This document shows, one piece after another, positions 2,106 to 14,379 of a DNA stretch of 64,000 nt. The notes under the pieces were generated by a model. That model searched no databases. It was not told the DNA's origin and saw nothing but the letters and a program-made list of their open reading frames with translations. Positions within the stretch are counted from its first letter, which is position 1; the number at the start of each line of letters is the position of its first letter. The stretch lies in assembly GCA_043721835.1 (NCBI GenBank), contig JAYSQD010000111.1, positions 60,703 to 124,702 on the forward strand, written 5' to 3'. A program made the translations under genes and the position numbers. The stretch is from Arenimonas sp. (GTDB lineage: Bacteria > Pseudomonadota > Gammaproteobacteria > Xanthomonadales > Xanthomonadaceae).

Positions 2106-4385
2106 TTGGAAACTCCCATGACAGAACTAGCGACATCGCTAAAGGCTAATGCTCCGGAACAAAAACGAGCAACAGCACAAAATGTCAATGAACAAATTTC
2201 CGCATCGAACGCCGAACCAAGCATGCGTTCTGCATCATGCGCCTGCGGTGGCGGCTGTGCGCGATGTAATAACAGGAAAAACAGCAGCCGTGGAATATTA
2301 CAAGCGAAACTAGAGGTCGGTGCACCTGACGATGCTTATGAACAAGAAGCAGATCGGGTTGCTGATGAAATTCTAGCAACTCCATCGGGCAAGGCTATCA
2401 GCAGTAAAACGCCACCTCTTATCCAGCGACTGACAAGTCAAACTAATGGATATAAAACTGCAGCACCACCGAGCGTGGAAAGCGTCCTTTCTGGATCTGG
2501 TAAACCCCTTGACACACAACTACAACAAGATATGGGCCAAAGATTCAGCCAGGATTTTTCTGAAGTGCGAATTCATACTGGTATGGATGCAGAACAATCA
2601 GCACAAGAAATAAGCGCACACGCCTATACAGTTGGAAGGAATATTGTATTTGGTGCAGGACAATTTGCACCAAGCTCGCAGCAAGGAAAACGATTGCTTG
2701 CACATGAGTTGACGCATGTAGTGCAGCAGAGATCAGAAATTAACAGGCAAATAATACAAAGAGACATTTGGTATAGAGGCGAAGGTACAGGGGTAGCGCC
2801 CGCTGCACCTGGTAGTGTGATTCATGATTTTGGTGATGGCCTGTACATGACAGATAGCCCAGCGTTAGCTGCTGAGTATGCAGCATTAAGGTCTGGGTCT
2901 ATGGAAGGGTCAGCTCCTCTTGTTTTAGCTGCAGATATAGAAAGCAGTTCTTTGGGAAGAATTCTGAATCTCTTGAGTGACACACGATGGCAGCAATTTT
3001 TAGCAGAGAGCCCCATACCAGGAGGTCCGACACATCAAGCACTCATTCAAATGGCCAACGAAAACTATGAGGCAATATTCCAAAATTTTTTACAGCGAAA
3101 CAATTTACATCTGGAAAATTTTGATACCGTTATTGGCCAGGAATTTGTCCGGGGCGGCACTCAAATCTGTGTACGTAATCCTTCCATTGTTAGCCAAATA
3201 AGGGCTGCGCTCAGACCGTATGTGCCATCAGCAGCAGGTGCAACCACTTCAAGACCTGGTTCAAGTGCAAGTGAGCCTCCGACCACTCCGGTTAGCGTAG
3301 CAACTCGGTATAACATCTTAAATACTACTGTTAATGAAGCGGGCAATACAGTAGCCGAGGTCGAAATATTATTAGGACGCGGCGCAGAAGATCTGAGCAG
3401 AGTATCAGGCGGTACGTCGATGCCATCGAGGATTGTATTGCGCATAACAACGAGTGCGGAAGGTGCATTTGTTGGGGCAGAATCGGTGGGCATAGAATTA
3501 AGTTCTGGGGTGACAGAAGCATTGGCAAGACAAATTATTGCAACCTTGCCTGAGGCCGCCGCAGTCGGTGCCGAAGGCGCTGTCGTAGGCACTGCTGCTA
3601 CAGCCGCTCGAGCATCCAGATGGGTAAAAGGATTAGGTTGGGCCGGAATAATTTTATTCATCGGTGTTACAGGTTATCAATATAGTCAGGCGACTACTGA
3701 CCGGGCTAGGCGCAGGGTGCTAGTCACTGCTGGGGCAGGTTTAGCGGGAGGCACAATCGGCACCTATGTTGTGTGCAATCTAATATTTGGAATTGAAACT
3801 TTTGGACTTAGCTTAATTGGCTGCGGTTTGGTTGCGGGAGGTGCAAGTGCTTACATTGCTTCAGAAGCATCAGGGGAAGTGTACGACGAGGCAACAGCCA
3901 CGCCACTTGAAAGTAGTTTGCATGAACTAGAGTCACTACCCGAAATGGTAAGACGATTATTTTTTGGCATGCTTGACTCAAATGGAGATCTAAATGGTGT
4001 GCCACTTTCCAGTGAATTTGTCAGAGAATTCATGAGAGTAGTTCCCTCTGGAATATCACAGTATGAAGTCAGTGTTTTATTGGGTAACTTAAGGCAATCA
4101 GGCAGCACTGACACAATTGCTTCGATCATCTCTTCGCTTCAAACGGCTATTAGCCAATTACCTGGGCGAAGACTTGCACAACCACCCGCTACTCTTGGAA
4201 TTCTCGATGTAACAGGCGGTAGTGCGATTTTTCCATTTCATATTGATACGGATATCTCGATTCCACTTGGCCCAATGCGCCTATTGCCCCCGCCCAGACC
4301 TTTGCCGGGAGGACTAGGACGTGATGAAGTTCCTACAGACAGGAGAATTGCCCCCTCCCTTCCTGCTGCAGAAATTAGGTTTTGA
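2106..4385 (+). CDS. DUF4157 (HExxH zincin-like) head protein with an unassigned globular domain and a glycine-zipper transmembrane tail (P1)
   Basis: 759-aa ORF with a TTG start at 2106 and an alternative ATG at 2118. It has CACGGGCARC at 2238-2267. It carries the DUF4157 signature GKPLDTQLQQDMGQRFSQDFSEVRIHTG...AYTVGRNIVFGAGQFAP...LLAHELTHVVQQ, with HELTH at 2703-2717. Hydrophobic Gly-rich segments (WAGIILFIGVTGY, VTAGAGLAGGTIGTYVVCNLIFG, LIGCGLVAGGASAYIA) lie at ~3621-3863. Confidence 0.85.
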   Translation: METPMTELATSLKANAPEQKRATAQNVNEQISASNAEPSMRSASCACGGGCARCNNRKNSSRGILQAKLEVGAPDDAYEQEADRVADEILATPSGKAISSKTPPLIQRLTSQTNGYKTAAPPSVESVLSGSGKPLDTQLQQDMGQRFSQDFSEVRIHTGMDAEQSAQEISAHAYTVGRNIVFGAGQFAPSSQQGKRLLAHELTHVVQQRSEINRQIIQRDIWYRGEGTGVAPAAPGSVIHDFGDGLYMTDSPALAAEYAALRSGSMEGSAPLVLAADIESSSLGRILNLLSDTRWQQFLAESPIPGGPTHQALIQMANENYEAIFQNFLQRNNLHLENFDTVIGQEFVRGGTQICVRNPSIVSQIRAALRPYVPSAAGATTSRPGSSASEPPTTPVSVATRYNILNTTVNEAGNTVAEVEILLGRGAEDLSRVSGGTSMPSRIVLRITTSAEGAFVGAESVGIELSSGVTEALARQIIATLPEAAAVGAEGAVVGTAATAARASRWVKGLGWAGIILFIGVTGYQYSQATTDRARRRVLVTAGAGLAGGTIGTYVVCNLIFGIETFGLSLIGCGLVAGGASAYIASEASGEVYDEATATPLESSLHELESLPEMVRRLFFGMLDSNGDLNGVPLSSEFVREFMRVVPSGISQYEVSVLLGNLRQSGSTDTIASIISSLQTAISQLPGRRLAQPPATLGILDVTGGSAIFPFHIDTDISIPLGPMRLLPPPRPLPGGLGRDEVPTDRRIAPSLPAAEIRF

Positions 4386-4486: not shown

Positions 4487-7009
4487 ATGGCAATGCTTTC
4501 TACAGCATCAAAAAATAGCTTTAACGGATCGCAAAATACCTCGACTAAAAATACTGTTGGAAAAAACTTGGTATCAAACGCTCAATTGCCAATGCGCACC
4601 ACTCCATGCGCTTGTGGTGGCGGCTGTGCACGATGCAATAGCAAAAAAAATCAGAGCAATAAAATATTACAGACCAAGCTGCATATAGGGGACGCAAACG
4701 ATGTTTACGAACAAGAAGCAGACCGTATCGCTGACCATATTTTAGCCTCATCAACGCCTTCAGCAATCAATGCGGCACCACTATCTATCCAACGCGTGAC
4801 AGGGCAAGCTAATGCTCAAATTGGCTATACAATTCCCGCAAGCATTGATCACGTTATTTCGAGTGGCGGCAGCCCATTGGAGCAAACACTGCAACAAGAT
4901 ATGGGCCAACGCTTCGGCCACGATTTTTCTGATGTGCGAATACACGCCGACACTAACGCAGAAAAATCTGCACAAGACTTGCAGGCCAAGGCATACACCG
5001 TTGGACAAAAAATTGTATTTGGCGCTGGTCAATTTGCACCAGGCACCCATGCAGGGCGACACTTGCTTGCACATGAGTTGACCCATGTTGTGCAACAACG
5101 TACCGATGCATCGTCCGCCACAAACTTACAACGACAGCCCTCTACAAGCACTGCAAGACCACCACACATCACACAAATAGTGGTTGATCAAAACACACCG
5201 CAACAAGTCACTGCGACCTTTAGTGATGGCCATACGGAAAGTGACACCTGTTCTACTGGCAAAGGCCATTGTTGTTTCGATGATGATGCCGGTACTGCCA
5301 AAGGTGGTGCCTGCTCTGCCGCCCGCTCTGTACAAGTCGGCAACAATTGCACTCCCATTGGTGACTTTACCGTTACCACCCAAGTGCCAGTGACCAGCGG
5401 CGGGGTTCGACTATGGACACAATTTCACAATGCAAAAAGTGTTGCCCTGCATGAATATTCTCCAGTCGATGGCACACCTTTGTCGCATGGCTGTGTTCGC
5501 ATGAATACCGCCATGGCACAAACCATTTACGACGGTACCCGAGTAGGAGTAACGCGCGTCAGGGTACAAGGCTTGGCAAGGCCGAGTTGTACAAATACAA
5601 ATTTGCAGAATGAATGGAGCGGTGATTTTAGTTCGGCGGGCACAACACCGCCAGACGGAACCACGATAGATCCGATGCTAGGACGCCGTCTCACGCCAAC
5701 AGAAGTTACTCAGGAAAGAAATCATATTCGTGAGTCACGTGAAGAACTACGCAACGCCTATGGCGTCAACGACGCTGGCCTGGATACTGAATTGGCAACG
5801 GTACAAGGCGGCGCCTCTATTGTTTCAAGAATCCCACGCTGCGTGCCTGCATTAACCACGGAAGAACAGCAAGTTCCCGCCGCACAAACCAGCGGTTTCC
5901 TGACAACAGGCGCCACTACTACCGCTACTGCCTTCACCACAGCATTGAGCGCTTTACGTTCAGAGGCAAGTGCAGTTCAGCTCGTACAGCAAACAGGTGA
6001 ACAACTTTGGCAAGCGGCGACCGCTGCTGCGCGTGCCGGGGGTAGCGGTAGCGATGACCGTCAGTTGTATTGGACAAGATTGATGATGACCACCGCATTG
6101 CGTCAATGGAACCCTTCATGGCTCAGGATTAGTGCAGTCAGTAGTAATGTAGATGCGCTAAGAAGATTACAAGCACGGCTTTTACAATTGCTGGAACAAA
6201 GCTCGCGCGGTATCACTAGCACCGCTTTCCCTACCAGTAATCCGGATGAAAAAAGAATCCTTATCAGCGGCTTTGACCCGTTTGGTTTTTCTACCGGCGG
6301 TGACATTCGTCAGAGCAATCTTTCTGGCGCAGCAACTTTGGCATTGGATGGTGAAACGCTGACCCAAGGCAGCATTACGGCACATGTAGAAGGCGTAGTT
6401 TTTCCTGTTCGTTATAGGGATTTCAATGATGGCATTGTTGAAAATAGTCTTCGCCCGCATCTGACAGGATCACAGCCACCGCATTTGGTCATGAGCATCA
6501 GCCAAGGCAGCAGTCAATTTGAATTTGAAGAAACCGCTGGTCGTAGAAGATCGGCGGGTAGTTTTCTGGACAATTTAAATCGCCCCAGTGGAACCGAAAC
6601 TAATCCAACAATACCGCCAGGATCACCGGCACTTGCCGCTAGTCCCGAATTTTTGCCGCATAGTGTGCCTTCAGCCATGCTCGGAGCAATGCGTGGAGCC
6701 GAAGGGCGCACAGGCGCAATCCCCGAAGAAACTACCGTCAAAGATTTACCAATTGGCGCAACGCAACCACGCACCTTACCTGCGGGGCCAGGAACAAATC
6801 CCGGTATCGCCGTCGAAGGTTCTGGCGGTGGTTTTCTGTCTAACGAAATTTTTTATCGCAACAGCTTATTGCGTACTCAACTCGGCTCAACCATACCCAT
6901 GATTCATTTGCACACACCGCGACTTCCACCGGGCGCTACCGATACGGTGCGAAATAATTTTATTGATCGAACGCGGGCCATTTTAAGAGCATCATTACCC
7001 AGTCTTTAA
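4487..7009 (+). CDS. DUF4157 head protein fused to a YkuD-type L,D-transpeptidase fold and a peptidase-C15 (pyroglutamyl-peptidase)-like fold (P2)
   Basis: 840-aa ORF with CACGGGCARC at 4607-4636 and HELTH at 5072-5086. The YkuD-like region is ~5168-5572 (IVVDQ...STGKG...TPIGDFTV...ALHEY...GTPLSHGCVRM, with SHGCVRM at 5483-5503). The C15-like region is ~6251-7006 (KRILISGFDPFG ... FEFEETAG ... GGGFLSNEIFY ... MIHLHTP). Confidence 0.85.
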   Translation: MAMLSTASKNSFNGSQNTSTKNTVGKNLVSNAQLPMRTTPCACGGGCARCNSKKNQSNKILQTKLHIGDANDVYEQEADRIADHILASSTPSAINAAPLSIQRVTGQANAQIGYTIPASIDHVISSGGSPLEQTLQQDMGQRFGHDFSDVRIHADTNAEKSAQDLQAKAYTVGQKIVFGAGQFAPGTHAGRHLLAHELTHVVQQRTDASSATNLQRQPSTSTARPPHITQIVVDQNTPQQVTATFSDGHTESDTCSTGKGHCCFDDDAGTAKGGACSAARSVQVGNNCTPIGDFTVTTQVPVTSGGVRLWTQFHNAKSVALHEYSPVDGTPLSHGCVRMNTAMAQTIYDGTRVGVTRVRVQGLARPSCTNTNLQNEWSGDFSSAGTTPPDGTTIDPMLGRRLTPTEVTQERNHIRESREELRNAYGVNDAGLDTELATVQGGASIVSRIPRCVPALTTEEQQVPAAQTSGFLTTGATTTATAFTTALSALRSEASAVQLVQQTGEQLWQAATAAARAGGSGSDDRQLYWTRLMMTTALRQWNPSWLRISAVSSNVDALRRLQARLLQLLEQSSRGITSTAFPTSNPDEKRILISGFDPFGFSTGGDIRQSNLSGAATLALDGETLTQGSITAHVEGVVFPVRYRDFNDGIVENSLRPHLTGSQPPHLVMSISQGSSQFEFEETAGRRRSAGSFLDNLNRPSGTETNPTIPPGSPALAASPEFLPHSVPSAMLGAMRGAEGRTGAIPEETTVKDLPIGATQPRTLPAGPGTNPGIAVEGSGGGFLSNEIFYRNSLLRTQLGSTIPMIHLHTPRLPPGATDTVRNNFIDRTRAILRASLPSL

Positions 7010-7079: not shown

Positions 7080-9929
7080 ATGAATAAATTAAATACAAAC
7101 AAGAATGAAAATTCGAGCACGGCGGCTATTAGAAAGCCTTTAGCGACACGTCACTTGGGAGGAAGCAATCTAAATAGTCAGCCTGTTAGCAGCCAATGCG
7201 CTTGCGGTGGCAGCTGCCCTGCTTGCCAAAAAAAATTAAATGACATCAATATTTCACAACCTGCCGATGCAGCAGAAATGGAAGCCGACCAGATTGCCGA
7301 TAAAGTTATGCGAATACCTGCGGGAAAAACTACAGCCGTGGAAAGCAGAAAAAAATCTCCTGGTGCTATCCTACGCAAATGCAGTACCTGCGAAGATGAC
7401 GAAAAAAAGATTCACAGAAAACCGGTTTCTACCGGCGGCGCTGTGCCATCGCAAAGCGCAGCACATGTCAGCAATGCCATGAGTTCTGGCGGTCATCCGC
7501 TAGATAGCGAAACCCGCAATTTCTTCGAACCACGCATGGGTCGCGATTTTGGCAATGTCCGTGTTCATAGCGATTCAAGCGCCAATCATTCCGCTCGAGC
7601 GATTGATGCAAAAGCCTATGCGCTGGGCAACAATATCGTATTCGGCCAAAATCAATACAAGCCGGATTCTGACAGTGGCAAACATTTACTGGCACATGAA
7701 TTGGCGCATGTAGTTCAATCAGACAATTCTTCTGCGACTATTAACAGGCAAATGATTTATCGACAGCCTGCAAACGGTAGCACAGGTGATTTGGCAGTTA
7801 TCGATTACGAAATCCAGATGCTGAACGAAATGCCGGTAATGGACCCATTGGCCGCTGCCGCCGTGAATATGCAGCTGATCCAACTTCTTAAACGACGCGA
7901 CGAATTGTTGCGAGAGGGCGCGGGCACTTATGCGATAGCGCCCACAAAGCCAAAAACGGCAGTGAAGAAACCCGCTACCGGAAATGTCAATGACGATTTA
8001 TTTGCATCGCTGGACGACATGACACAACTTGAACAGGACCGGATGCATCAACAAATGCAAGACTTCAATACCATGGCCAAAGGCGGCTTGGGAAACCAGA
8101 ACTTCCAGTTCAAGCCGGTGCAGAAGCCACAGGTTGCGCAGAGCGGCTGCCATGTTGATCCTTACGTCCGATCGACGGGCGCAAGTACGTGCGGATTCAA
8201 ACGACCCGATGATGCAACCCGCGCGACACAAAAAGCGATGCAAATGCCCGCTCCTGATTTCAGTGCGGAAAACGCGAAAGAACGGGCGATGCTGGATCGT
8301 CTCAACTCGGCACATCTGACATGGAAAAGAACGGGTAAATTCACCAGCAGTAGCGAGTTCAGTCCCTACGAAATCGAAAAAGACAGGATCATTGTCCTTT
8401 ACAAGCGCTGGGACCTGTTTGAAAAAAGCGATCCGGATAAGGACGTCATAAAAAATCCGCTTGAATACTATTTCCGCCACGGGGGCGAATACATCAAGGA
8501 AAAAGAACGCCGCATATCGATGAAGCCATTCAAGGACAGGCTATATGCGGCCAGACAAAAAGCACGCTCCCGGTCAGACTATTGGTACTCGGCACACGAA
8601 GCCAATGAAAAAATGACTGGAGAGGAGGTCTGGCACGCAGGCTACTACGGCAGTCTTTTCATCGAAAGCGAGAAGGCACGCGTTTACAAGGAACAAGGTG
8701 CGCTACAAGAGCTTGAGCGCGAAGAGCGTGAAGAACGCCAGGCTCAAGACAGGCGCAATTTCGAGATCCAAAAAGAAAACAACTGGGAAGCACAGGGAGA
8801 TCAGCTTTCATCGCCTGCTACCATTCTTCAACCGTTTGCCATGGCCGTATTGGGAGCGCCTATTGCCGGCATTTATACCGGCATGCAGATGGGAATGATG
8901 GGTAACGAGGCCTACCAAGCCTGCAAGGATGGTTTTAGCTTTGATTGTGCCTTGTCTGCGGCTCCCATCGTCGCGACCGTCGTCATCCACCAAGTCACCA
9001 AACCTTCGGTAACGGCAAGACCTTCACTACCGAAATTGGCAACTGCTGCACCGACCATTATTGAACCCATCGTGAAACCCGGCATTGCCGAGCCCGTCCT
9101 GACATCGACAATCACAGAACCTGCAGTCAAACCTTCAGTGACTCCACCTGCTGTCAAACCGGTAGCGACAGAACCTGCCATCAAGCCCTCGACCACTGAA
9201 CCCGCTATCAAACCCGCAGAGACTCAAGCTACTGTCAAACCGGCAACAACAAAACCTCCGGTCAACCCAAGACAGGCGATGGAAGAGGCAAAGCTGGCCA
9301 ACGAAAAACGCATCGCCGAACTTGACGACAAGATTCGAAAACACCAGACAAATCAAAAAGACTATAACGACAAAGCGACTCGTATCGAGGCTGAACGGAA
9401 AACTTCGGATTTCCGCGAAAAGGCTGCCAATGCAAAAAGACAGGCTCGCAATGAAAAAAGACTCGCCGATGAAGCTGCCGCAGAACGTCAAAACCTTCGT
9501 TCACACAATGACATAATCGACAAGACACTAAATCCACCACCGCCCCGCCAGATTGGACCGGGACCTGGCAAAGCCCGTGGCGGCGCACACAGCGCACTAG
9601 AGGTCGCCGGTGGCGAGAGAAACCATATCCCGGCAGACGATTCCACCAAAATCCCTACCGGCAAAGGACCGGCCATCTGGATGGAAATAGAAGATCACAA
9701 GCAACTCAATAGTTCGGGCCAGCGCAATTTCAAGCCGACAGGAAAGTATCACATCTCCTCGGCTTCCGAATGGCGTGCAATGCAAAAGGATTTGATAAAG
9801 CAAGGCAAGTATATGGAAGCAATAAAAATGGATATTGACGACATCCGATCAAAATTTGGGTCGAAGTATGATGTCGGTATCCAGGAAATGCTGGAATATG
9901 TCAAAACGCTCAGACCTGGCGAATTCTGA
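7080..9929 (+). CDS. DUF4157 head protein with a helical region, a TM segment, a 9-aa repeat linker, a coiled coil and a small HNH-like C-terminal domain (P3)
   Basis: 949-aa ORF with CACGGSCPAC at 7197-7226 and the DUF4157 core GHPLDSETRNFFEPRMGRDFGNVRVHSD...AYALGNNIVFGQNQYKP...LLAHELAHVVQ (HELAH at 7695-7709). The hydrophobic stretch is LQPFAMAVLGAPIAGIYTGMQMGMMG...AAPIVATVVI. The C-terminal ~118 aa (9573-9926) contain ERNHIPADDS...GPAIWMEIEDHKQLNSSG. The head call is firm; the HNH-like call for the tip is tentative. Confidence 0.85.
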   Translation: MNKLNTNKNENSSTAAIRKPLATRHLGGSNLNSQPVSSQCACGGSCPACQKKLNDINISQPADAAEMEADQIADKVMRIPAGKTTAVESRKKSPGAILRKCSTCEDDEKKIHRKPVSTGGAVPSQSAAHVSNAMSSGGHPLDSETRNFFEPRMGRDFGNVRVHSDSSANHSARAIDAKAYALGNNIVFGQNQYKPDSDSGKHLLAHELAHVVQSDNSSATINRQMIYRQPANGSTGDLAVIDYEIQMLNEMPVMDPLAAAAVNMQLIQLLKRRDELLREGAGTYAIAPTKPKTAVKKPATGNVNDDLFASLDDMTQLEQDRMHQQMQDFNTMAKGGLGNQNFQFKPVQKPQVAQSGCHVDPYVRSTGASTCGFKRPDDATRATQKAMQMPAPDFSAENAKERAMLDRLNSAHLTWKRTGKFTSSSEFSPYEIEKDRIIVLYKRWDLFEKSDPDKDVIKNPLEYYFRHGGEYIKEKERRISMKPFKDRLYAARQKARSRSDYWYSAHEANEKMTGEEVWHAGYYGSLFIESEKARVYKEQGALQELEREEREERQAQDRRNFEIQKENNWEAQGDQLSSPATILQPFAMAVLGAPIAGIYTGMQMGMMGNEAYQACKDGFSFDCALSAAPIVATVVIHQVTKPSVTARPSLPKLATAAPTIIEPIVKPGIAEPVLTSTITEPAVKPSVTPPAVKPVATEPAIKPSTTEPAIKPAETQATVKPATTKPPVNPRQAMEEAKLANEKRIAELDDKIRKHQTNQKDYNDKATRIEAERKTSDFREKAANAKRQARNEKRLADEAAAERQNLRSHNDIIDKTLNPPPPRQIGPGPGKARGGAHSALEVAGGERNHIPADDSTKIPTGKGPAIWMEIEDHKQLNSSGQRNFKPTGKYHISSASEWRAMQKDLIKQGKYMEAIKMDIDDIRSKFGSKYDVGIQEMLEYVKTLRPGEF
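9114..9275 (+). repeat. Coding tandem repeat, 6 x 27 bp (T-E-P-A-[IV]-K-P-x-x) inside P3
   Basis: Units run 9114-9140, 9141-9167, 9168-9194, 9195-9221, 9222-9248 and 9249-9275. They were read in frame as TEPAVKPSV, TPPAVKPVA, TEPAIKPST, TEPAIKPAE, TQATVKPAT and TKPPVNPRQ. Confidence 0.9.
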
Positions 9930-9945
9930 ACATGGGAGATAGTCA

Positions 9946-10365
9946 ATGAATTACCCGATCAAACCCTATTCCGGAGTCGGACAAATCAATTTCCGGATGA
10001 CGATTGCCGAAGTTCGAAAAACACTTGATAGCGAACTTGGAAATTCATTGAAGCCAGGCAAAGATATGCCTTCGGATTTTTTCAAATCGCTCGGTATCTT
10101 CGTGGATTACCGCTCGCCAGGCATTTGCCAGGCCGTGGAATTCACTGGCCCCGCCAGCCCGACCTTCGAGGGCCGCGAGTTGATTGGAGAGCCGTTTGGC
10201 AACATCGCAGCCTGGATAAAAACATTGGATCATCATGTTCTTCTGGATGGCGCAGGGCTCAAAAGCATGAAATACGGTTTCGGCCTATACGCACCGTCGG
10301 CGGAAAAAAATCCGGAGCTACCCGTCAAGGCAGTCCTTATTTTTGACCGCGGTTACTTTGAATAA
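9946..10365 (+). CDS. Small cytoplasmic protein directly downstream of P3; candidate cognate immunity protein
   Basis: 139-aa ORF starting 17 nt after the P3 stop on the same strand, with no signal peptide and no motif I can name. The assignment is purely positional, from the toxin-immunity gene order. Confidence 0.45.
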   Translation: MNYPIKPYSGVGQINFRMTIAEVRKTLDSELGNSLKPGKDMPSDFFKSLGIFVDYRSPGICQAVEFTGPASPTFEGRELIGEPFGNIAAWIKTLDHHVLLDGAGLKSMKYGFGLYAPSAEKNPELPVKAVLIFDRGYFE

Positions 10366-10403
10366 CGAATTGCTGATATCGAATGATCATTTGAAAATAA
10401 TGA

Positions 10404-10645
10404 TCAAGTCGACAAATGCGACAGTTGGGTCGCATTGTCTTCCCAGTTTTGTCCATCAAAAGCTTCCACGGTCATATTCATAACGGTTCCCGCATCCAAG
10501 CAACGGGCATTCACATCCACACCATCGGGATTGCTGCGGGGAATGTAAAAACTTTTGATGCCGCAAACTTTACAAAAAACTATGTTTGGCAACGTCCGTG
10601 TTGAAAGTGTATTCGCTCAAAATTCATGCCCGCTAATCAATTGTA
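10404..10645 (-). pseudogene. Decayed 3' fragment of a GFA/CENP-V family gene (partial duplicate of 13400..13804)
   Basis: The 62-aa ORF 10404..10592 (FCKVCGIKSFYIPRSNPDGVDVNARCLDAGTV.NMTVEAFDGQNWEDNA) aligns with the C-terminal half of the intact 134-aa protein at 13400..13804. Nucleotide similarity continues to ~10645 with frame-breaking indels, and the N-terminal Cys-rich half is missing. Confidence 0.8.
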
Positions 10646-10695
10646 GGTGGCGGCAATGGCAAGCACCGCGATGAATAACAATATCGGAAACTTGC

Positions 10696-11694
10696 ATGGA
10701 TCAATATCCCATTTTATCTTTGCCTTTGTTTTCATGCTTTTCTTTTTTTTCTTTAAGGGCCGGTGCTACACCATATCGATACATGCCGCTGCCCGTGTCT
10801 AATACAATACTGAAATCAATTGCTGCGCCAATGACTAAACCAACTTCGACTCCAGCAGCAACTTCAACGCCTATACCTGTCCAAACAACGAAACCAAATC
10901 CAACATCTACTATTGATTCGGCAAAGCCAGCTTCACCCGACCCTGCGGTCGGATCAAAGCCAGCTACTCCCGTCATAACAACCAAGCCAGCGATTGGTCA
11001 GGGACAGCGACGCTTTGTAAATATTCAAACACCCGATCGGCAAATAACGCCCGCCTTTATTACACCTCCGCAGGACGTATCTGCGATCAGGTAGAGAATC
11101 GAAACCCTCGCCGACAAACCGGTGATAGTTGGAGTGCAGGCGAAGATAAACGTCGGCACCGAAAATGTTTTAACCGGACTCACGCATGCTGGGTTCACGA
11201 AAATGGATAATACGCGTGCCCAAGCACTGGGTGGAATCGGCGAAGCGGCGATGCTGCCACAAGTAACACAGCCGCCCGGAACACCGGCGAAAGCAGGCAA
11301 CCAGCCTTCCACCGGAATGATCGTCCGCCCTTTGGGACAGTCGGCACAATTGGAGGTCTTAGCCTGGAATACCGGCGCTCCCAGAAGTGACAACAAACCC
11401 TCGCATGCCGAAAGGCAATTCATAGAATGGTTTCATGGCCAAAGCCTGAAATGGAAAGAAAATGTTACCAGCGTTGATGTGCTCGTTTTCGGGCGCAACA
11501 TTTGCCCGAATTGCGATGCTGATCTCAAATGGTTGGAAGACAATAATCCGCATATCAAATTTAGTTGGATACGGGGCGACAAGTATCACCTGAAATCAAT
11601 GCACATTGCCCTTGTACAACGAACACTGCCAGAAGCTAGCGAAACATATCACCCACCAACAATGCTAACGAAACTGGCAATGAAACTACACTAG
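10696..11694 (+). pseudogene. Head-less (orphan) toxin cassette: P/T/K-rich linker plus zinc deaminase-like domain, split by one in-frame TAG
   Basis: ORFs 10696..11094 and 11122..11694 share a frame, separated only by TAG at 11092-11094 and 27 stop-free nt. The downstream part carries SHAERQFIEW (HAE at 11404-11412) and, 30 residues later, ICPNC (11503-11514), which is the H-x-E...C-x-x-C deaminase zinc signature. The 190-aa ORF could still be expressed from GTG 11122 or ATG 11203. Confidence 0.6.
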
Positions 11695-11708
11695 ATTAAT
11701 TGAAAAAG

Positions 11709-13301
11709 TCATCGTAATTTTTTATCACATTCCAGATTCTCGAACTTGGGAAGATGCTCAATAATTCCATGTACAGCATCCGGATTAGTTTTTGGATAAT
11801 ATTTAAGAACTTCGTTTTTCCAGTTGACAAGGTAGTAGTTGATCTTCGATTCATCTGCCTTGTCTTTATCGAATTCCGACAAATCCAGATTGGGGTCACC
11901 GTCGGCATAGACATGGCTCGTGTCATGTGGATGCGAATGATAAAAGCCTACCAGTTTTTCATCGGGAGTCTCTTGTTTTACAATCTGTCCACATTCATTG
12001 AGTTTGCCGGAAACCGGACCGGTAATTCGATAGCTTCCATCCGACCTAGCGATAATGTTGCCGCAAAATTCAAGGCCCTTGTTGACGATACCGCAACGAG
12101 CCTGTCTCAGCTTAGGCATTACCTGGTCATCCATCGCGTTCAGTGTCGGCGGCTTTTTCTTAGGTGTCGGTGGAGTACCAGCTAAAGAATCAATGACGTC
12201 TTTATTAATGTCATATAGTTCCCATGACGGCATCTTGTCTTTTGCTTCAAACGCAACAATGGCCGTGAAAACATAATAGCGATAATTTTCTATAAGTTTT
12301 TTTTGCAAGTCAGGATCGCTGTTCAAGCTTTTGCTTGTGCGATCACGAGCTTCAAGGAACCATTTGCGCATGACAATTAAGTCATCGCGCAAACTATTGG
12401 GGAAGCGTTCTGGATGTGACAATAGTTCACCGCTACTGTATTGCCAGCCGCTGAAAGACAGCAACCAAATCACTCCCTCTACAAAACTCTTGGCATCTTT
12501 TTCGTTGGGATCAAGCTTATTGATTTTTTCTTCATTACTTTTGGCACCAGCGTTCTCATGACCAACTTCCGCTTCAGGCTGACGCTGCAAAGTCGCAGAA
12601 CCCTGGCTCATAGGCATTTGCGGGCGCAGCCGTGGAGTATCTTGTGGATCGAAAGCAGACTGCTGCACCACATGCGTCAACTCATGCGCCAGCAATCGCT
12701 TGCCTTGATTCGTTGTTGGTGTGTACTGGCCTGCACCAAATACAATATTATTTCCAACCGTATAAGCATTGGCACTTACATCGCGGGCCGATTGTTCTGC
12801 GGCGGCTCCGGAATGCACTCGCACAGCTGAAAAATCATTACCAAAGCGCTGTCCCATATCATGTTGTATGGAAGCTTCAAGCGGCTTACCCGAACCTGCA
12901 AGCACGTGGTCTACGCTTGCGGGTGCTGCATTATTCGATGCTTCCGCAGCATGTGCTGTGAAGCGCTGAATACGTGGCGCCGAGTTGCTCACTGCCGAAT
13001 GCGTAGATGTCGCCATGATCTGATCTGCTACTCGATCGGCCTCTTGCTCTAAGGGATCATTACTTGCACCAATGCTAAGTTTTTTTTGTAGCTTGCTTGT
13101 GTCGTCTGATTCGGAACCTGCTTGGCAACGGGCGCAGCCGCCACCACAGGCACAGCTAGACTTGCGTTGAATTTGCATCGAGCGAGCCGAGCGATTTGCT
13201 GTTTTTTTTTGATGAGCAGACATCAACCCTGATTCTCTCGAAGAACTGGCTAACATTGCAATCACTTCACTTCTCCTACTCGGCAGAGCGCACCACTTCA
13301 A
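11709..13301 (-). CDS. DUF4157 head protein with a DUF4329/JAB-like C-terminal domain (P4)
   Basis: The longest ORF is 530 aa, and the likelier starts are ATG 13256 or 13223. It has CACGGGCARC and the DUF4157 core GKPLEASIQHDMGQRFGNDFSAVRVHSG...AYTVGNNIVFGAGQYTP...LLAHELTHVVQQ (HELTH at 12672-12686). The C-terminus reads EFCGNIIARSDGSYRITGPVSG...VGFYHSHPHD...LSEFD...INYYLVNWKNEVLKYY (motifs at 11868-11939), which matches the pattern I associate with DUF4329. Confidence 0.8.
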   Translation of the reverse strand: MKWCALPSRRSEVIAMLASSSRESGLMSAHQKKTANRSARSMQIQRKSSCACGGGCARCQAGSESDDTSKLQKKLSIGASNDPLEQEADRVADQIMATSTHSAVSNSAPRIQRFTAHAAEASNNAAPASVDHVLAGSGKPLEASIQHDMGQRFGNDFSAVRVHSGAAAEQSARDVSANAYTVGNNIVFGAGQYTPTTNQGKRLLAHELTHVVQQSAFDPQDTPRLRPQMPMSQGSATLQRQPEAEVGHENAGAKSNEEKINKLDPNEKDAKSFVEGVIWLLSFSGWQYSSGELLSHPERFPNSLRDDLIVMRKWFLEARDRTSKSLNSDPDLQKKLIENYRYYVFTAIVAFEAKDKMPSWELYDINKDVIDSLAGTPPTPKKKPPTLNAMDDQVMPKLRQARCGIVNKGLEFCGNIIARSDGSYRITGPVSGKLNECGQIVKQETPDEKLVGFYHSHPHDTSHVYADGDPNLDLSEFDKDKADESKINYYLVNWKNEVLKYYPKTNPDAVHGIIEHLPKFENLECDKKLR

Positions 13302-13399
13302 GGGATGCCTTTAGAAAATAGAACGCAAAATAATGCCATCTGTGGACAACAAACTTTTTATGAATCAGCTATTTCAATGGAAACGGTGCTGGGCTCCAT

Positions 13400-13804
13400 C
13401 TAGCCTTTGGAAAGATGTGCCAATTTCGCCGCATTGTCTTCCCAATTCTGCCCATCAAACGCCTCAACCGTCATTTTCGTGACCGTTCCGGGTTCCAAGC
13501 AACGGGCGTTGACATCAACACCATCGGGATTACTGCGCGGGGTGTAAAAACTTTTTATGCCACAGACTTTACAGAAAATATGTTTGGCGACACCGGTATT
13601 GAAGGTGTATTCGGTCAAAAATTCATGACCGCTAGTCAGTCGAAATGCCGGGCGTGGCACGATCAAATGTAAAAATCCGGTCAGGCTACATAATGAGCAA
13701 TTGCAGTCTTGCACGGTGATATTGGCAGGTGCATCGACCTCAAAAACAACGCGGCGACAATGACAGCCGCCGCGATGAGTAGTCCAGTCAGAGCCTTGAA
13801 TCAT
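13400..13804 (-). CDS. GFA (glutathione-dependent formaldehyde-activating enzyme)/CENP-V family protein
   Basis: 134 aa with the Cys-rich zinc motifs GGCHCRRV...CNCSLC...FCKVCG typical of the family. Confidence 0.8.
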   Translation of the reverse strand: MIQGSDWTTHRGGCHCRRVVFEVDAPANITVQDCNCSLCSLTGFLHLIVPRPAFRLTSGHEFLTEYTFNTGVAKHIFCKVCGIKSFYTPRSNPDGVDVNARCLEPGTVTKMTVEAFDGQNWEDNAAKLAHLSKG

Positions 13805-14379
13805 TAGTGGCCTTTACCGTTCTTTTCCTTGCCTTTAGCAGGCTTGCCCATGTCTTTCGATTTGCCGCCTTTATTTGAATTTCCAGGGCCGTGGTCGTTG
13901 CCGCCATGCATATTTGAGCCCTTATCTTTGCCATGTCCTTTGGTCTTGAACTTGCCGTTTGATTTACCAACCTTGCCCTTTAAGGCATGAAAAGCTTCCG
14001 AGCCAGGTTTGATGCCCATGCGTTTAGCAATAACGCCCCAGCCTTGTCCATGATTTTTATCGTAATCGCGCAACACATTTTGGCAGGGTACGCGAAGCTG
14101 ATAAGCCAACGCGCAGCCGTAGTAAACGTCACCAGGTGCCCAGCGGCGGTCAACAATATATTCGTTTACCACGTAACGCGGTGCACCGAAGCTATTGACT
14201 ACATCATCAATGAAATAATTGCGGTCATCACGCTCATATCGGTTCATATCACTGAGCTGTGCGTCCATCCAGACATCGCCAGTGCGGGGATTGAAACCGA
14301 ATATATAATTATCAACTTGGGCCTGGGCATTGAAACTGAAAGCCAAGCCCAATGCGAGTAATAAATTGCGAAAATTCAT
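13804..14379 (-). CDS. Secreted hypothetical protein with a Lys/Gly/His-rich tail
   Basis: 191 aa with the signal peptide MNFRNLLLALGLAFSFNAQAQ and the C-terminal low-complexity stretch GKSNGKFKTKGHGKDKGS...KGKEKNGKGH. Its stop overlaps the gfa start (TAATG at 13802-13806). Confidence 0.6.
   Translation of the reverse strand: MNFRNLLLALGLAFSFNAQAQVDNYIFGFNPRTGDVWMDAQLSDMNRYERDDRNYFIDDVVNSFGAPRYVVNEYIVDRRWAPGDVYYGCALAYQLRVPCQNVLRDYDKNHGQGWGVIAKRMGIKPGSEAFHALKGKVGKSNGKFKTKGHGKDKGSNMHGGNDHGPGNSNKGGKSKDMGKPAKGKEKNGKGH

Follow-up and report, generated by a model that had tools for sequence, protein, structure and literature searches.

A probable decaying orphan of a contractile injection system cargo toxin, with an AID/APOBEC-like, deaminase-like tip, in Arenimonas

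INTRODUCTION

What is a deaminase-like domain doing without a head, behind a stop codon, in the middle of an array of toxin genes? The question is raised by a short cassette at positions 10696-11694 of a 64,000-nt stretch of DNA from Arenimonas sp. (GenBank assembly GCA_043721835.1, contig JAYSQD010000111.1, positions 60,703 to 124,702, forward strand), which is called here the window. The best explanation that we can offer is that the cassette is a decaying, non-functional orphan, made of the linker and the toxin tip of what was formerly a cargo protein of an extracellular contractile injection system (eCIS, PVC-type), a reading to which we assign a probability of about 0.75. The initial annotation of this DNA had already described a head-less linker and toxin tail of a DUF4157 protein with a nonsense codon, and this general view is supported here, with amendments.

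AN INTERRUPTED CASSETTE

The cassette is made of two open reading frames (ORFs) that share one frame. The downstream ORF (190 aa, GTG start, forward strand, 11122-11694) carries the motif SHAERQFIEWF and, 30 residues on, CPNC, while the upstream one (132 aa, 10696-11094) stops at a TAG (11092-11094) from which 27 nt without a stop lead to the GTG. Both the motif pair (HAE-x2-F, then CxxC) and this arrangement of the frames had been pointed out in the initial annotation and were borne out, the His, Ala, Glu and both Cys being invariant in the 39 sequences that we have aligned. The resemblance that it saw between the upstream ORF and the linker of P3, the full-length eCIS toxin gene that precedes the cassette, is also real, with P 18 %, T 17 % and A 10 % in the 87 residues before the TAG and P 20 %, T 15 % and A 14 % in the P3 linker. 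The extents that it gave to the two ORFs held for their core and not for their ends, since the first 35-45 codons of the 132-aa ORF and the last 37 residues of the 190-aa ORF are not derived from a toxin. Residues of the tip are numbered here from the one after the TAG (11095), E106 of the tip being E97 of the 190-aa ORF. The features of the cassette are given below, where L002 stands for a syntenic 4.2-kb contig used for comparison throughout.

10831-11091, forward strand: pre-toxin linker remnant, P/T-rich, with 'RRFVNIQTP' (composition; alignment with the linkers of homologues; 79 % identical to L002 from 10934)
11092-11094, forward strand: TAG nonsense codon (AGG CAG CGA in L002, AGG TAG AGA in the window)
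11095-11580, forward strand: deaminase-like tip, AID/APOBEC-like, 162 residues, 'RIETLADKPVIVG...FSWIRGD', all conserved residues intact (Pfam, profiles, AlphaFold, L002 alignment)
11404-11412, forward strand: H-A-E codons, with the predicted zinc-ligand His (11404-11406) and catalytic Glu (11410-11412) (invariant, n=39; aligned to the HAE of APOBEC3C/3B)
11503-11514, forward strand: C-P-N-C codons, with the two predicted zinc-ligand Cys (11503-11505 and 11512-11514) (invariant Cys; aligned to the PCxxC of APOBEC3)
11581-11694, forward strand: foreign read-through tail, 37 codons and a TAG (L002 homology ends after GAC, and L002 has a TAA there)

TAG is an ordinary stop codon in this DNA, ending 8 of the 29 long ORFs of the window, and a recoding of the TAG was rejected on these grounds. 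No Shine-Dalgarno-like sequence was visible on inspection before either the GTG at 11122 or an ATG at 11200, and no promoter-like site above chance was found upstream of the cassette.

INTACT RELATIVES OF THE CASSETTE

The initial annotation had taken the cassette for the tail of a DUF4157 protein, and intact versions in which the head is still linked to the same tip do exist. An eCIS_core domain near the N terminus, followed by a linker and the C-terminal tip, was found in seven proteins (P0004, P0005, P0006, P0008, P0012, P0017 and P0022) and, in a genome scan run with 8 close sequences on a collection without the window's own genome, at loci of Chlorobaculum (L003), Rhizomicrobium (L005), the haloarchaeon Salinigranum (L006) and Dechloromonas (L007). 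An AAA ATPase is the next gene in L003 and L005, and L007 has a CIS tape-measure gene (CIS_TMP) and an AAA ATPase just upstream. The DUF4157 domain ('PVC metallopeptidase') is a mark of eCIS toxins, which have long linkers and C-terminal toxin domains and mostly come without immunity genes (PMC8213781; PMC3239186); one of them, the DUF4157 deaminase EAT11, is toxic to both E. coli and yeast (Geller 2021, PMC8213781). In AlgoCIS it is a disordered N-terminal region that is needed for loading, DUF4157 being dispensable (preprint 10.64898/2026.05.27.728243). In the window cassette, neither an eCIS_core domain (by Pfam) nor an N-terminal loading region (in the upstream sequence) was found, and the window copy is a remnant and not a working member of the eCIS cargo toxins.

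No immunity-sized conserved gene comes after the toxin at the intact loci, an AAA ATPase or an MCP being encoded next, and in the window no ORF able to encode an immunity protein was found either between the tip and the convergent gene P4 or after P4. The initial annotation was right about this absence and wrong about its reason, which it saw in the convergence of P4, because P4 was inserted later (see below) and the intact relatives also lack such a gene.

On these grounds, the intact protein would consist of a disordered N-terminal loading sequence, the eCIS_core/DUF4157 domain, a long linker and a tip of ~160 residues. Zinc would be bound by His104, Cys137 and Cys140, with Glu106 as the predicted proton shuttle, and the injected tip would presumably deaminate cytosine in the nucleic acid of the target cell.

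Some of the relatives deserve a separate mention. The haloarchaeal protein (881 aa, with eCIS_core and the deaminase-like tip) is encoded at 5928-8573 of L006 (Salinigranum sp., NZ_JBHTAO010000001), and the family therefore spans the boundary between bacteria and archaea. In L001 (ENA ERZ25039464 contig_43864, 7100-10849) a long tip-bearing toxin gene appears as several ORFs, with frameshifts at otherwise conserved sequence (for example '...LLGPG*' against 'LLGLGDISG' in the relatives) that are probably assembly indel errors and not real decay. P0002, a candidate for a stand-alone 282-aa protein without DUF4157, was rejected as such since it is the last piece of this frameshift-split gene. P0003 (from a JGI 3300041967 contig) is a 117-aa tip fragment that starts at 'VLPQVPQPPG' and stands alone amid six eCIS_core genes, possibly as another orphan or as a truncated copy of the tip.

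DEAMINASE ASSIGNMENT OF THE TIP

A word-indexed protein search returned only 3 relatives with the single tip sequence and 6 with a profile of 39 sequences. An exhaustive HMMER search, with a profile built from the 3 word-search relatives, matched 159 representative clusters (50 % identity) at E <= 1e-3, of which 29 reached E <= 1e-30. Many of the matched proteins have 600-1500 residues and bear the domain at their extreme C terminus. In the alignment of 39 sequences the mean column identity is 27 % and the sole invariant columns are H104, A105, E106, Q108, C137 and C140. SHAE occupies tip residues 103-106 and C137 and C140 form the CxxC, with one strand between the two motifs. Since these are the only invariant columns in such a divergent alignment, the HAE/CxxC pair is not a chance match.

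The catalogued models point in the same direction. Among the 39 members only deaminase models were matched in Pfam (SNAD4 in 10, APOBEC_N in 8 with a best E of 2e-6, NAD1 in 6, Deam_C in 5 and APOBEC2 in 4), and some members go beyond the gathering cut-offs: P0053 (profile E 1.2e-14) with NAD1 (35.5 bits, cut-off 27), APOBEC_N (33.9, cut-off 25), SNAD4 (32.6, cut-off 27) and APOBEC2 (32.1, cut-off 26.8), P0054 with SNAD4 (31.2) and P0063 with APOBEC_N (25.9). The distant members have the canonical SPCxxC, and in the close subfamily the Pro is replaced (GR-x-I-C). When the family profile was compared with the sequences of solved structures, APOBEC3C, 3B, 3G and 3F came first (E 0.014-0.024), with HAE and CxxC on the zinc ligands, and an hhalign comparison with human AID gave an E of 0.0025 with the motifs in the same register. 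NCBIfam held no family for the window tip, P0004, P0053, the P3 tip or the 139-aa ORF behind it. As judged by sequence, the tip family is uncatalogued, without a dedicated model in Pfam or NCBIfam, and its nearest catalogued relatives appear to be the AID/APOBEC-like deaminases.

The tip is also found in other architectures. In a group of proteins (P0035, P0036, P0043, P0047 and P0021) there are forms of ~290 aa in which a hydrophobic N terminus and a small domain with Cys come ahead of the tip, a layout that suggests secretion without an eCIS, and one 542-aa protein that bears the tip at its N terminus.

LESIONS OF THE WINDOW COPY

A way to see what has happened to the cassette is to compare it with L002, which is labelled as an uncultured Arenimonas metagenome-assembled genome and preserves the order linker and deaminase, convergent GFA, ORF189, TonB and transketolase. 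Positions 111-757 of L002 align with 10934-11580 of the window (79.4 % identity, no gaps), and the L002 frame is open from the contig edge via '...GQGQRRFVNIQAPARQ...VATVRQRIETLADKPVIVG...FNWVRGD' to a TAA. In the column of the TAG, L002 has CAG (Gln) and other homologues have Q, E or N, the window codon being one C-to-T change away. The segments 'RRFVNIQTP' and 'AIR*RIETLA', which flank or span the TAG, align with full-length homologues, and the linker aligns with those of P0004, P0005, P0008-P0010, P0012, P0016, P0017 and P0028. With the 'RRxVxxP' motif conserved upstream of and across the TAG, the frame was therefore once continuous. The TAG is also present in L012, an 11,863-nt Logan contig that is recorded for two samples and matches the window at 100 % identity, which makes a base-call error unlikely.

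At the 3' end, homology to L002 stops exactly after the GAC of 'RGD', where L002 has its TAA and where, or near which, the members of the family end. The native TAA has been lost in the window and 37 foreign residues (KYHLKS...KLH, 11581-11691) are appended in its place. They belong to the following feature:

11581-13399, reverse strand: insertion of 1.82 kb relative to L002, carrying P4 (position 757 of L002 matches both 11580 and 13400 of the window)

The insertion is clean: it begins right behind the final codon of the deaminase and extends exactly to the stop of GFA. P4 itself (11709-13301, reverse strand) has eCIS_core and DUF4329 (31.7 bits, cut-off 28.6) together with weak JAB matches and a JAB-like tip. 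The single nonsense codon of the initial annotation is thus confirmed as such and fails as the only lesion, two more being the loss of the native stop and a truncation at the 5' side.

GENE FRAGMENTS AND NEIGHBOURS UPSTREAM

Upstream of the linker remnant no homology to a head was found; pseudogene fragments are there instead, and the 5' breakpoint of the toxin-derived sequence falls between ~10795 and 10830. The features on this side are:

7080-10365, forward strand: carrier P3 (eCIS_core, P/T-rich linker, unrelated tip; 7080-9929) and a 139-aa ORF (9946-10365), preceding the orphan (Pfam)
10410-10697, reverse strand: GFA' pseudogene, decayed paralogue of the intact GFA at 13400-13804 (tblastn E 9e-41; ~80 % identity in DNA; 35-codon deletion, in-frame stop, 1-nt frameshift)
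10704-10793, reverse strand: ORF191/ORF189-like 3' fragment (the C terminus of L002 ORF189 aligns, E 5e-6)

The three GFA copies are 74-81 % identical to each other. A recent local duplication of the resident GFA was rejected as the source of GFA' because the latter is 74-76 % identical to the resident and the L002 copies alike. ORF191 (13804-14379) has ORF189 as its counterpart in L002, with a shared Lys/Gly-rich C terminus, and blastn matches 1110-1191 of L002 to 10649-10727 of the window. We take the ORF191-like fragment as the edge of the DNA that displaced the tip. Read on the forward strand, 10704-10793 is the T-rich 'ILSLPLFSCFSFFSL...' start of the 132-aa ORF, whose ATG at 10696 overlaps the start codon of GFA' on the opposite strand. 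Since GFA' and the ORF191 fragment lie on the reverse strand, this 'MDQYPILSL...' start is antisense noise, and a signal peptide at the beginning of the 132-aa ORF, which had been a candidate, was rejected on the same grounds.

Over its head and middle, P3 shares 32 % identity with P0005, whose tip is the deaminase tip, and no repeat of >= 25 nt is shared by the P3 linker and the orphan linker. Within the P3 linker, at 9086-9268, a 27-nt unit occurs five times in tandem (61-76 % identity to the reference copy) and encodes nonapeptides of the 'EPAxKPxxT' type. Its tip (9300-9929, ~200 aa, 'GGERNHIPAD...WMEIEDHKQ') and the 139-aa ORF that follows have no Pfam or NCBIfam match and could be an undescribed pair of toxin and immunity protein. 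The array has four full-length eCIS_core genes in all (2106-4385, 4487-7009, 7080-9929, which is P3, and 11709-13301, which is P4 on the reverse strand) and begins near the 5' end of the window. No structural genes of a contractile injection system were found among the large ORFs examined at 14500-64000, which are those of transporters, pilMNOPQ-type genes, PBP1, transketolase and the like. Any genes for the particle itself would lie outside the window.

Taken together, these observations suggest the following history. A P3-type carrier would once have borne the deaminase tip, adjoining GFA as it does in L002, and incoming DNA (another tip with the ORF behind it, GFA and a part of ORF191) would have pushed the old tip downstream, with the cut falling inside the linker. 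The C-to-T nonsense at 11092 and the insertion of the P4 cassette, which removed the stop codon, are both shown by the comparison with L002 and are separate lesions. Without a loading head, a promoter or a recognizable ribosome-binding site, the tip would therefore be neither made as cargo nor delivered.

POINTS AGAINST THE PROPOSED DECAYED DEAMINASE

A number of observations weigh against this reading or against parts of it. One is that the window tip itself stays under every Pfam cut-off (APOBEC_N 20.2 bits, cut-off 25; SNAD4 18.3, cut-off 27; NAD2 17.9, cut-off 27; also APOBEC2). The order and mechanism of the rearrangements have been deduced from one short relative contig (L002), and the identical contig L012 possibly comes from reads of the same isolate. 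Between the window and L002, the ratio of nonsynonymous to synonymous changes (dN/dS) is 0.15 in the domain and 0.19 overall (dS 0.73), with no indels and the conserved residues kept. This shows purifying selection on the tip over most of the divergence between the two; the inactivation is therefore comparatively recent, or else the tip retains some use.

The structure is the other difficulty. The AlphaFold model, made with the alignment of 39 sequences, has a pLDDT of 83 (88-97 in the core blocks, 53-62 in the stretch of the foreign tail) and follows the order strand 85-92, HAE helix 105-114, strand 124-133, CxxC helix 138-149 and strand 155-160, each of the two motifs standing where its helix begins. 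Strand 85-92 is preceded by several short strands and by a conserved one at 12-20. Foldseek found no match at E <= 1e-3 with two models (PDB twice, BFVD once); against PDB, cytidine deaminase 4eg2 was retrieved at E 0.25-0.54 over 56 local columns, and a guanine deaminase ranked lower. The proposal of the initial annotation, a deaminase of AID/APOBEC-like or bacterial toxin type, fared well on the sequence side, with relatives above Pfam cut-offs and the APOBEC3 motifs aligned; on the fold side, the structural comparison that it had suggested gave no significant match. Besides, the close subfamily stops 0-20 residues past strand 4 ('F.W.RGD') and has neither helix 4 nor strand 5. A complete five-stranded deaminase core was not found in it, the extra 37 residues of the window copy being foreign, and its catalytic competence is therefore hypothetical. 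The distant SPCxxC members have 50-90 more C-terminal residues than the close subfamily, and toxin clades of this kind are prone to C-terminal degeneration (Iyer 2011, PMC3239186).

The short form, of ~150-160 residues up to its terminal 'RGD', is marked by a conserved strand in the N-terminal part and by an 'LPxVxQPPGTPA' segment. It is a tentative idea, and one that we consider rather doubtful, that this subfamily might be an active minimal polynucleotide cytosine deaminase in which the N-terminal strand would substitute for helix 4 and strand 5, forming a structurally new branch of the AID/APOBEC-like enzymes.

ALTERNATIVE EXPLANATIONS

A tip without a head does not have to be a dead one. 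Loci of contact-dependent inhibition (CDI) and Rhs toxins are examples with orphan C-terminal (CT) modules, and the Arenimonas cassette could similarly be a silent reserve, kept as a spare that recombination could join to a full-length carrier such as P3. Its position directly downstream of a full-length carrier and its small ORF, the ~90 linker codons that it has kept, the low dN/dS with intact catalytic residues and the fusion of a P3-type head and middle to a deaminase tip elsewhere (P0005) would all fit such a role, as would the second apparent orphan (P0003, 117 aa), found within a cluster of six eCIS_core genes. Diversification of tips by recombination with standalone cassettes has also been described (Zhang 2012, PMC3482391). 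However, the TAG stands at the very start of the conserved module, and any crossover in the linker would therefore import the nonsense codon. The P3 and orphan linkers have no repeat of >= 25 nt in common, the native stop is gone and the neighbouring DNA is itself pseudogenized. On balance we regard a reserve cassette as unlikely.

The tip could also work by itself inside the cell that encodes it, as a stand-alone enzyme of 190 aa (from the GTG at 11122) or of 163 aa (from the ATG at 11200, as in the public annotation, P0001). The ORF is callable, the 163-aa product is on record (NCBI, Logan), the conserved residues have all been kept and the product from the GTG would retain most of the conserved N-terminal strand. 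Against this, neither start is preceded by a Shine-Dalgarno-like sequence and there is no promoter-like site, the 163-aa form would lack the near-invariant N-terminal strand (V12), and a foreign tail of 37 residues is attached. An unshielded deaminase without an immunity protein would also damage its own producer, EAT11 having killed E. coli and yeast (PMC8213781). We find such an enzyme quite improbable.

Still less credit can be given to the view that the tip is no deaminase at all, its CxxC belonging to a thioredoxin/glutaredoxin-like or other fold and its HAE being coincidental. It takes its strength from the search of solved structures with the single sequence, in which matches of this kind were in the range E 0.2-2, a thioredoxin oxidoreductase came first (E 0.23) and glutaredoxins appeared too, from the Foldseek result and from the absence of helix 4 and strand 5 in the close subfamily. 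With the family profile, however, APOBEC3 ranks above the thioredoxin-like match. HAE and CxxC are jointly invariant at the spacing of deaminases, members pass the cut-offs of AID/APOBEC-like Pfam models with redox families in 0 of the 39, and the distant members have both the canonical SPCxxC and a full-length C terminus. As for a sequencing or assembly artefact, in which the TAG would be a base-call error in a continuous gene, the single-base difference from L002 would allow it, but the identical TAG in the two samples of L012 and a head and stop that are missing even without the TAG leave it next to no probability.

IMPLICATIONS

If the cassette is the decaying orphan that we propose, the locus is a textbook case of toxin-gene turnover by tip displacement, nonsense mutation and a stop-removing insertion, with no present function. 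Its value is in the family that stands behind it, which has ~160 clusters, is carried on eCIS cargo proteins and, in the close subfamily, has an unusual truncated core. Should this family be active, it would form a branch near AID/APOBEC in bacteria and archaea, put to the test whether deaminases can work without helix 4 and strand 5, and provide small candidates for base editing. Were the short form truly a minimal deaminase, contractile injection systems would deliver it, in bacteria as well as in at least one haloarchaeon, with no immunity protein alongside. Such an enzyme would be relevant to the bacterial origin of AID/APOBEC and could be used as a compact scaffold for base editors, and the window copy would be a member that was killed recently.

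COMPARISON WITH KNOWN SYSTEMS

The closest likeness in architecture is to the DUF4157 toxins of eCIS/PVC particles, including EAT11 of Amycolatopsis nigrescens (PMC8213781, PMC3239186). The intact relatives share with them the N-terminal DUF4157, the long linker and the C-terminal toxin, and likewise stand beside AAA ATPase or tape-measure genes without an immunity gene, whereas the window copy is head-less and interrupted. The deaminases linked to the PVC metallopeptidase have been listed under the OTT_1508 clade (Iyer 2011, PMC3239186), while the window tip matches AID/APOBEC-like models; the comparison with EAT11 is by description only.

Bacterial toxins that are also nearest to AID/APOBEC have been described in Wolbachia (B3gp45) and Pseudomonas brassicacearum (PSEBR_m1207), equally without immunity genes and fast-evolving (PMC3239186). 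They are linked to RHS and SpvB and have kept strand 5 and two extra C-terminal helices (PMC3239186), whereas the close subfamily, compared with them by description, is linked to DUF4157, stops behind strand 4 and bears a conserved extension at its N terminus. With the eukaryotic AID/APOBEC, NAD1/NAD2 and SNAD enzymes (Krishnan 2018, PMC5889660) the tip shares HAExxF..W, the strand and (S/P)CxxC, a similarity that covers only ~60-90 residues (from strand 2 to strand 4), with the window tip sub-threshold and no link to APOBEC by Foldseek. DddA and SsdA (de Moraes 2021, PMC7901873) are likewise zinc deaminase tips, borne at the C terminus of large secreted polymorphic toxins, but they belong to the SCP1.201 and DYW-like clades, are delivered by the type VI secretion system and have an adjacent immunity gene, and none of these three traits was seen here.

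Finally, the orphan cassettes of polymorphic toxins (Zhang 2012, PMC3482391) provide a parallel for the window copy as it now stands. It differs from them in having no cognate immunity gene and no linker DNA homology to the resident carrier, as well as in its nonsense codon and lost stop, and it resembles them in being a tip without a head, placed downstream of a full-length toxin gene of its own class, with part of the pre-toxin region still attached.

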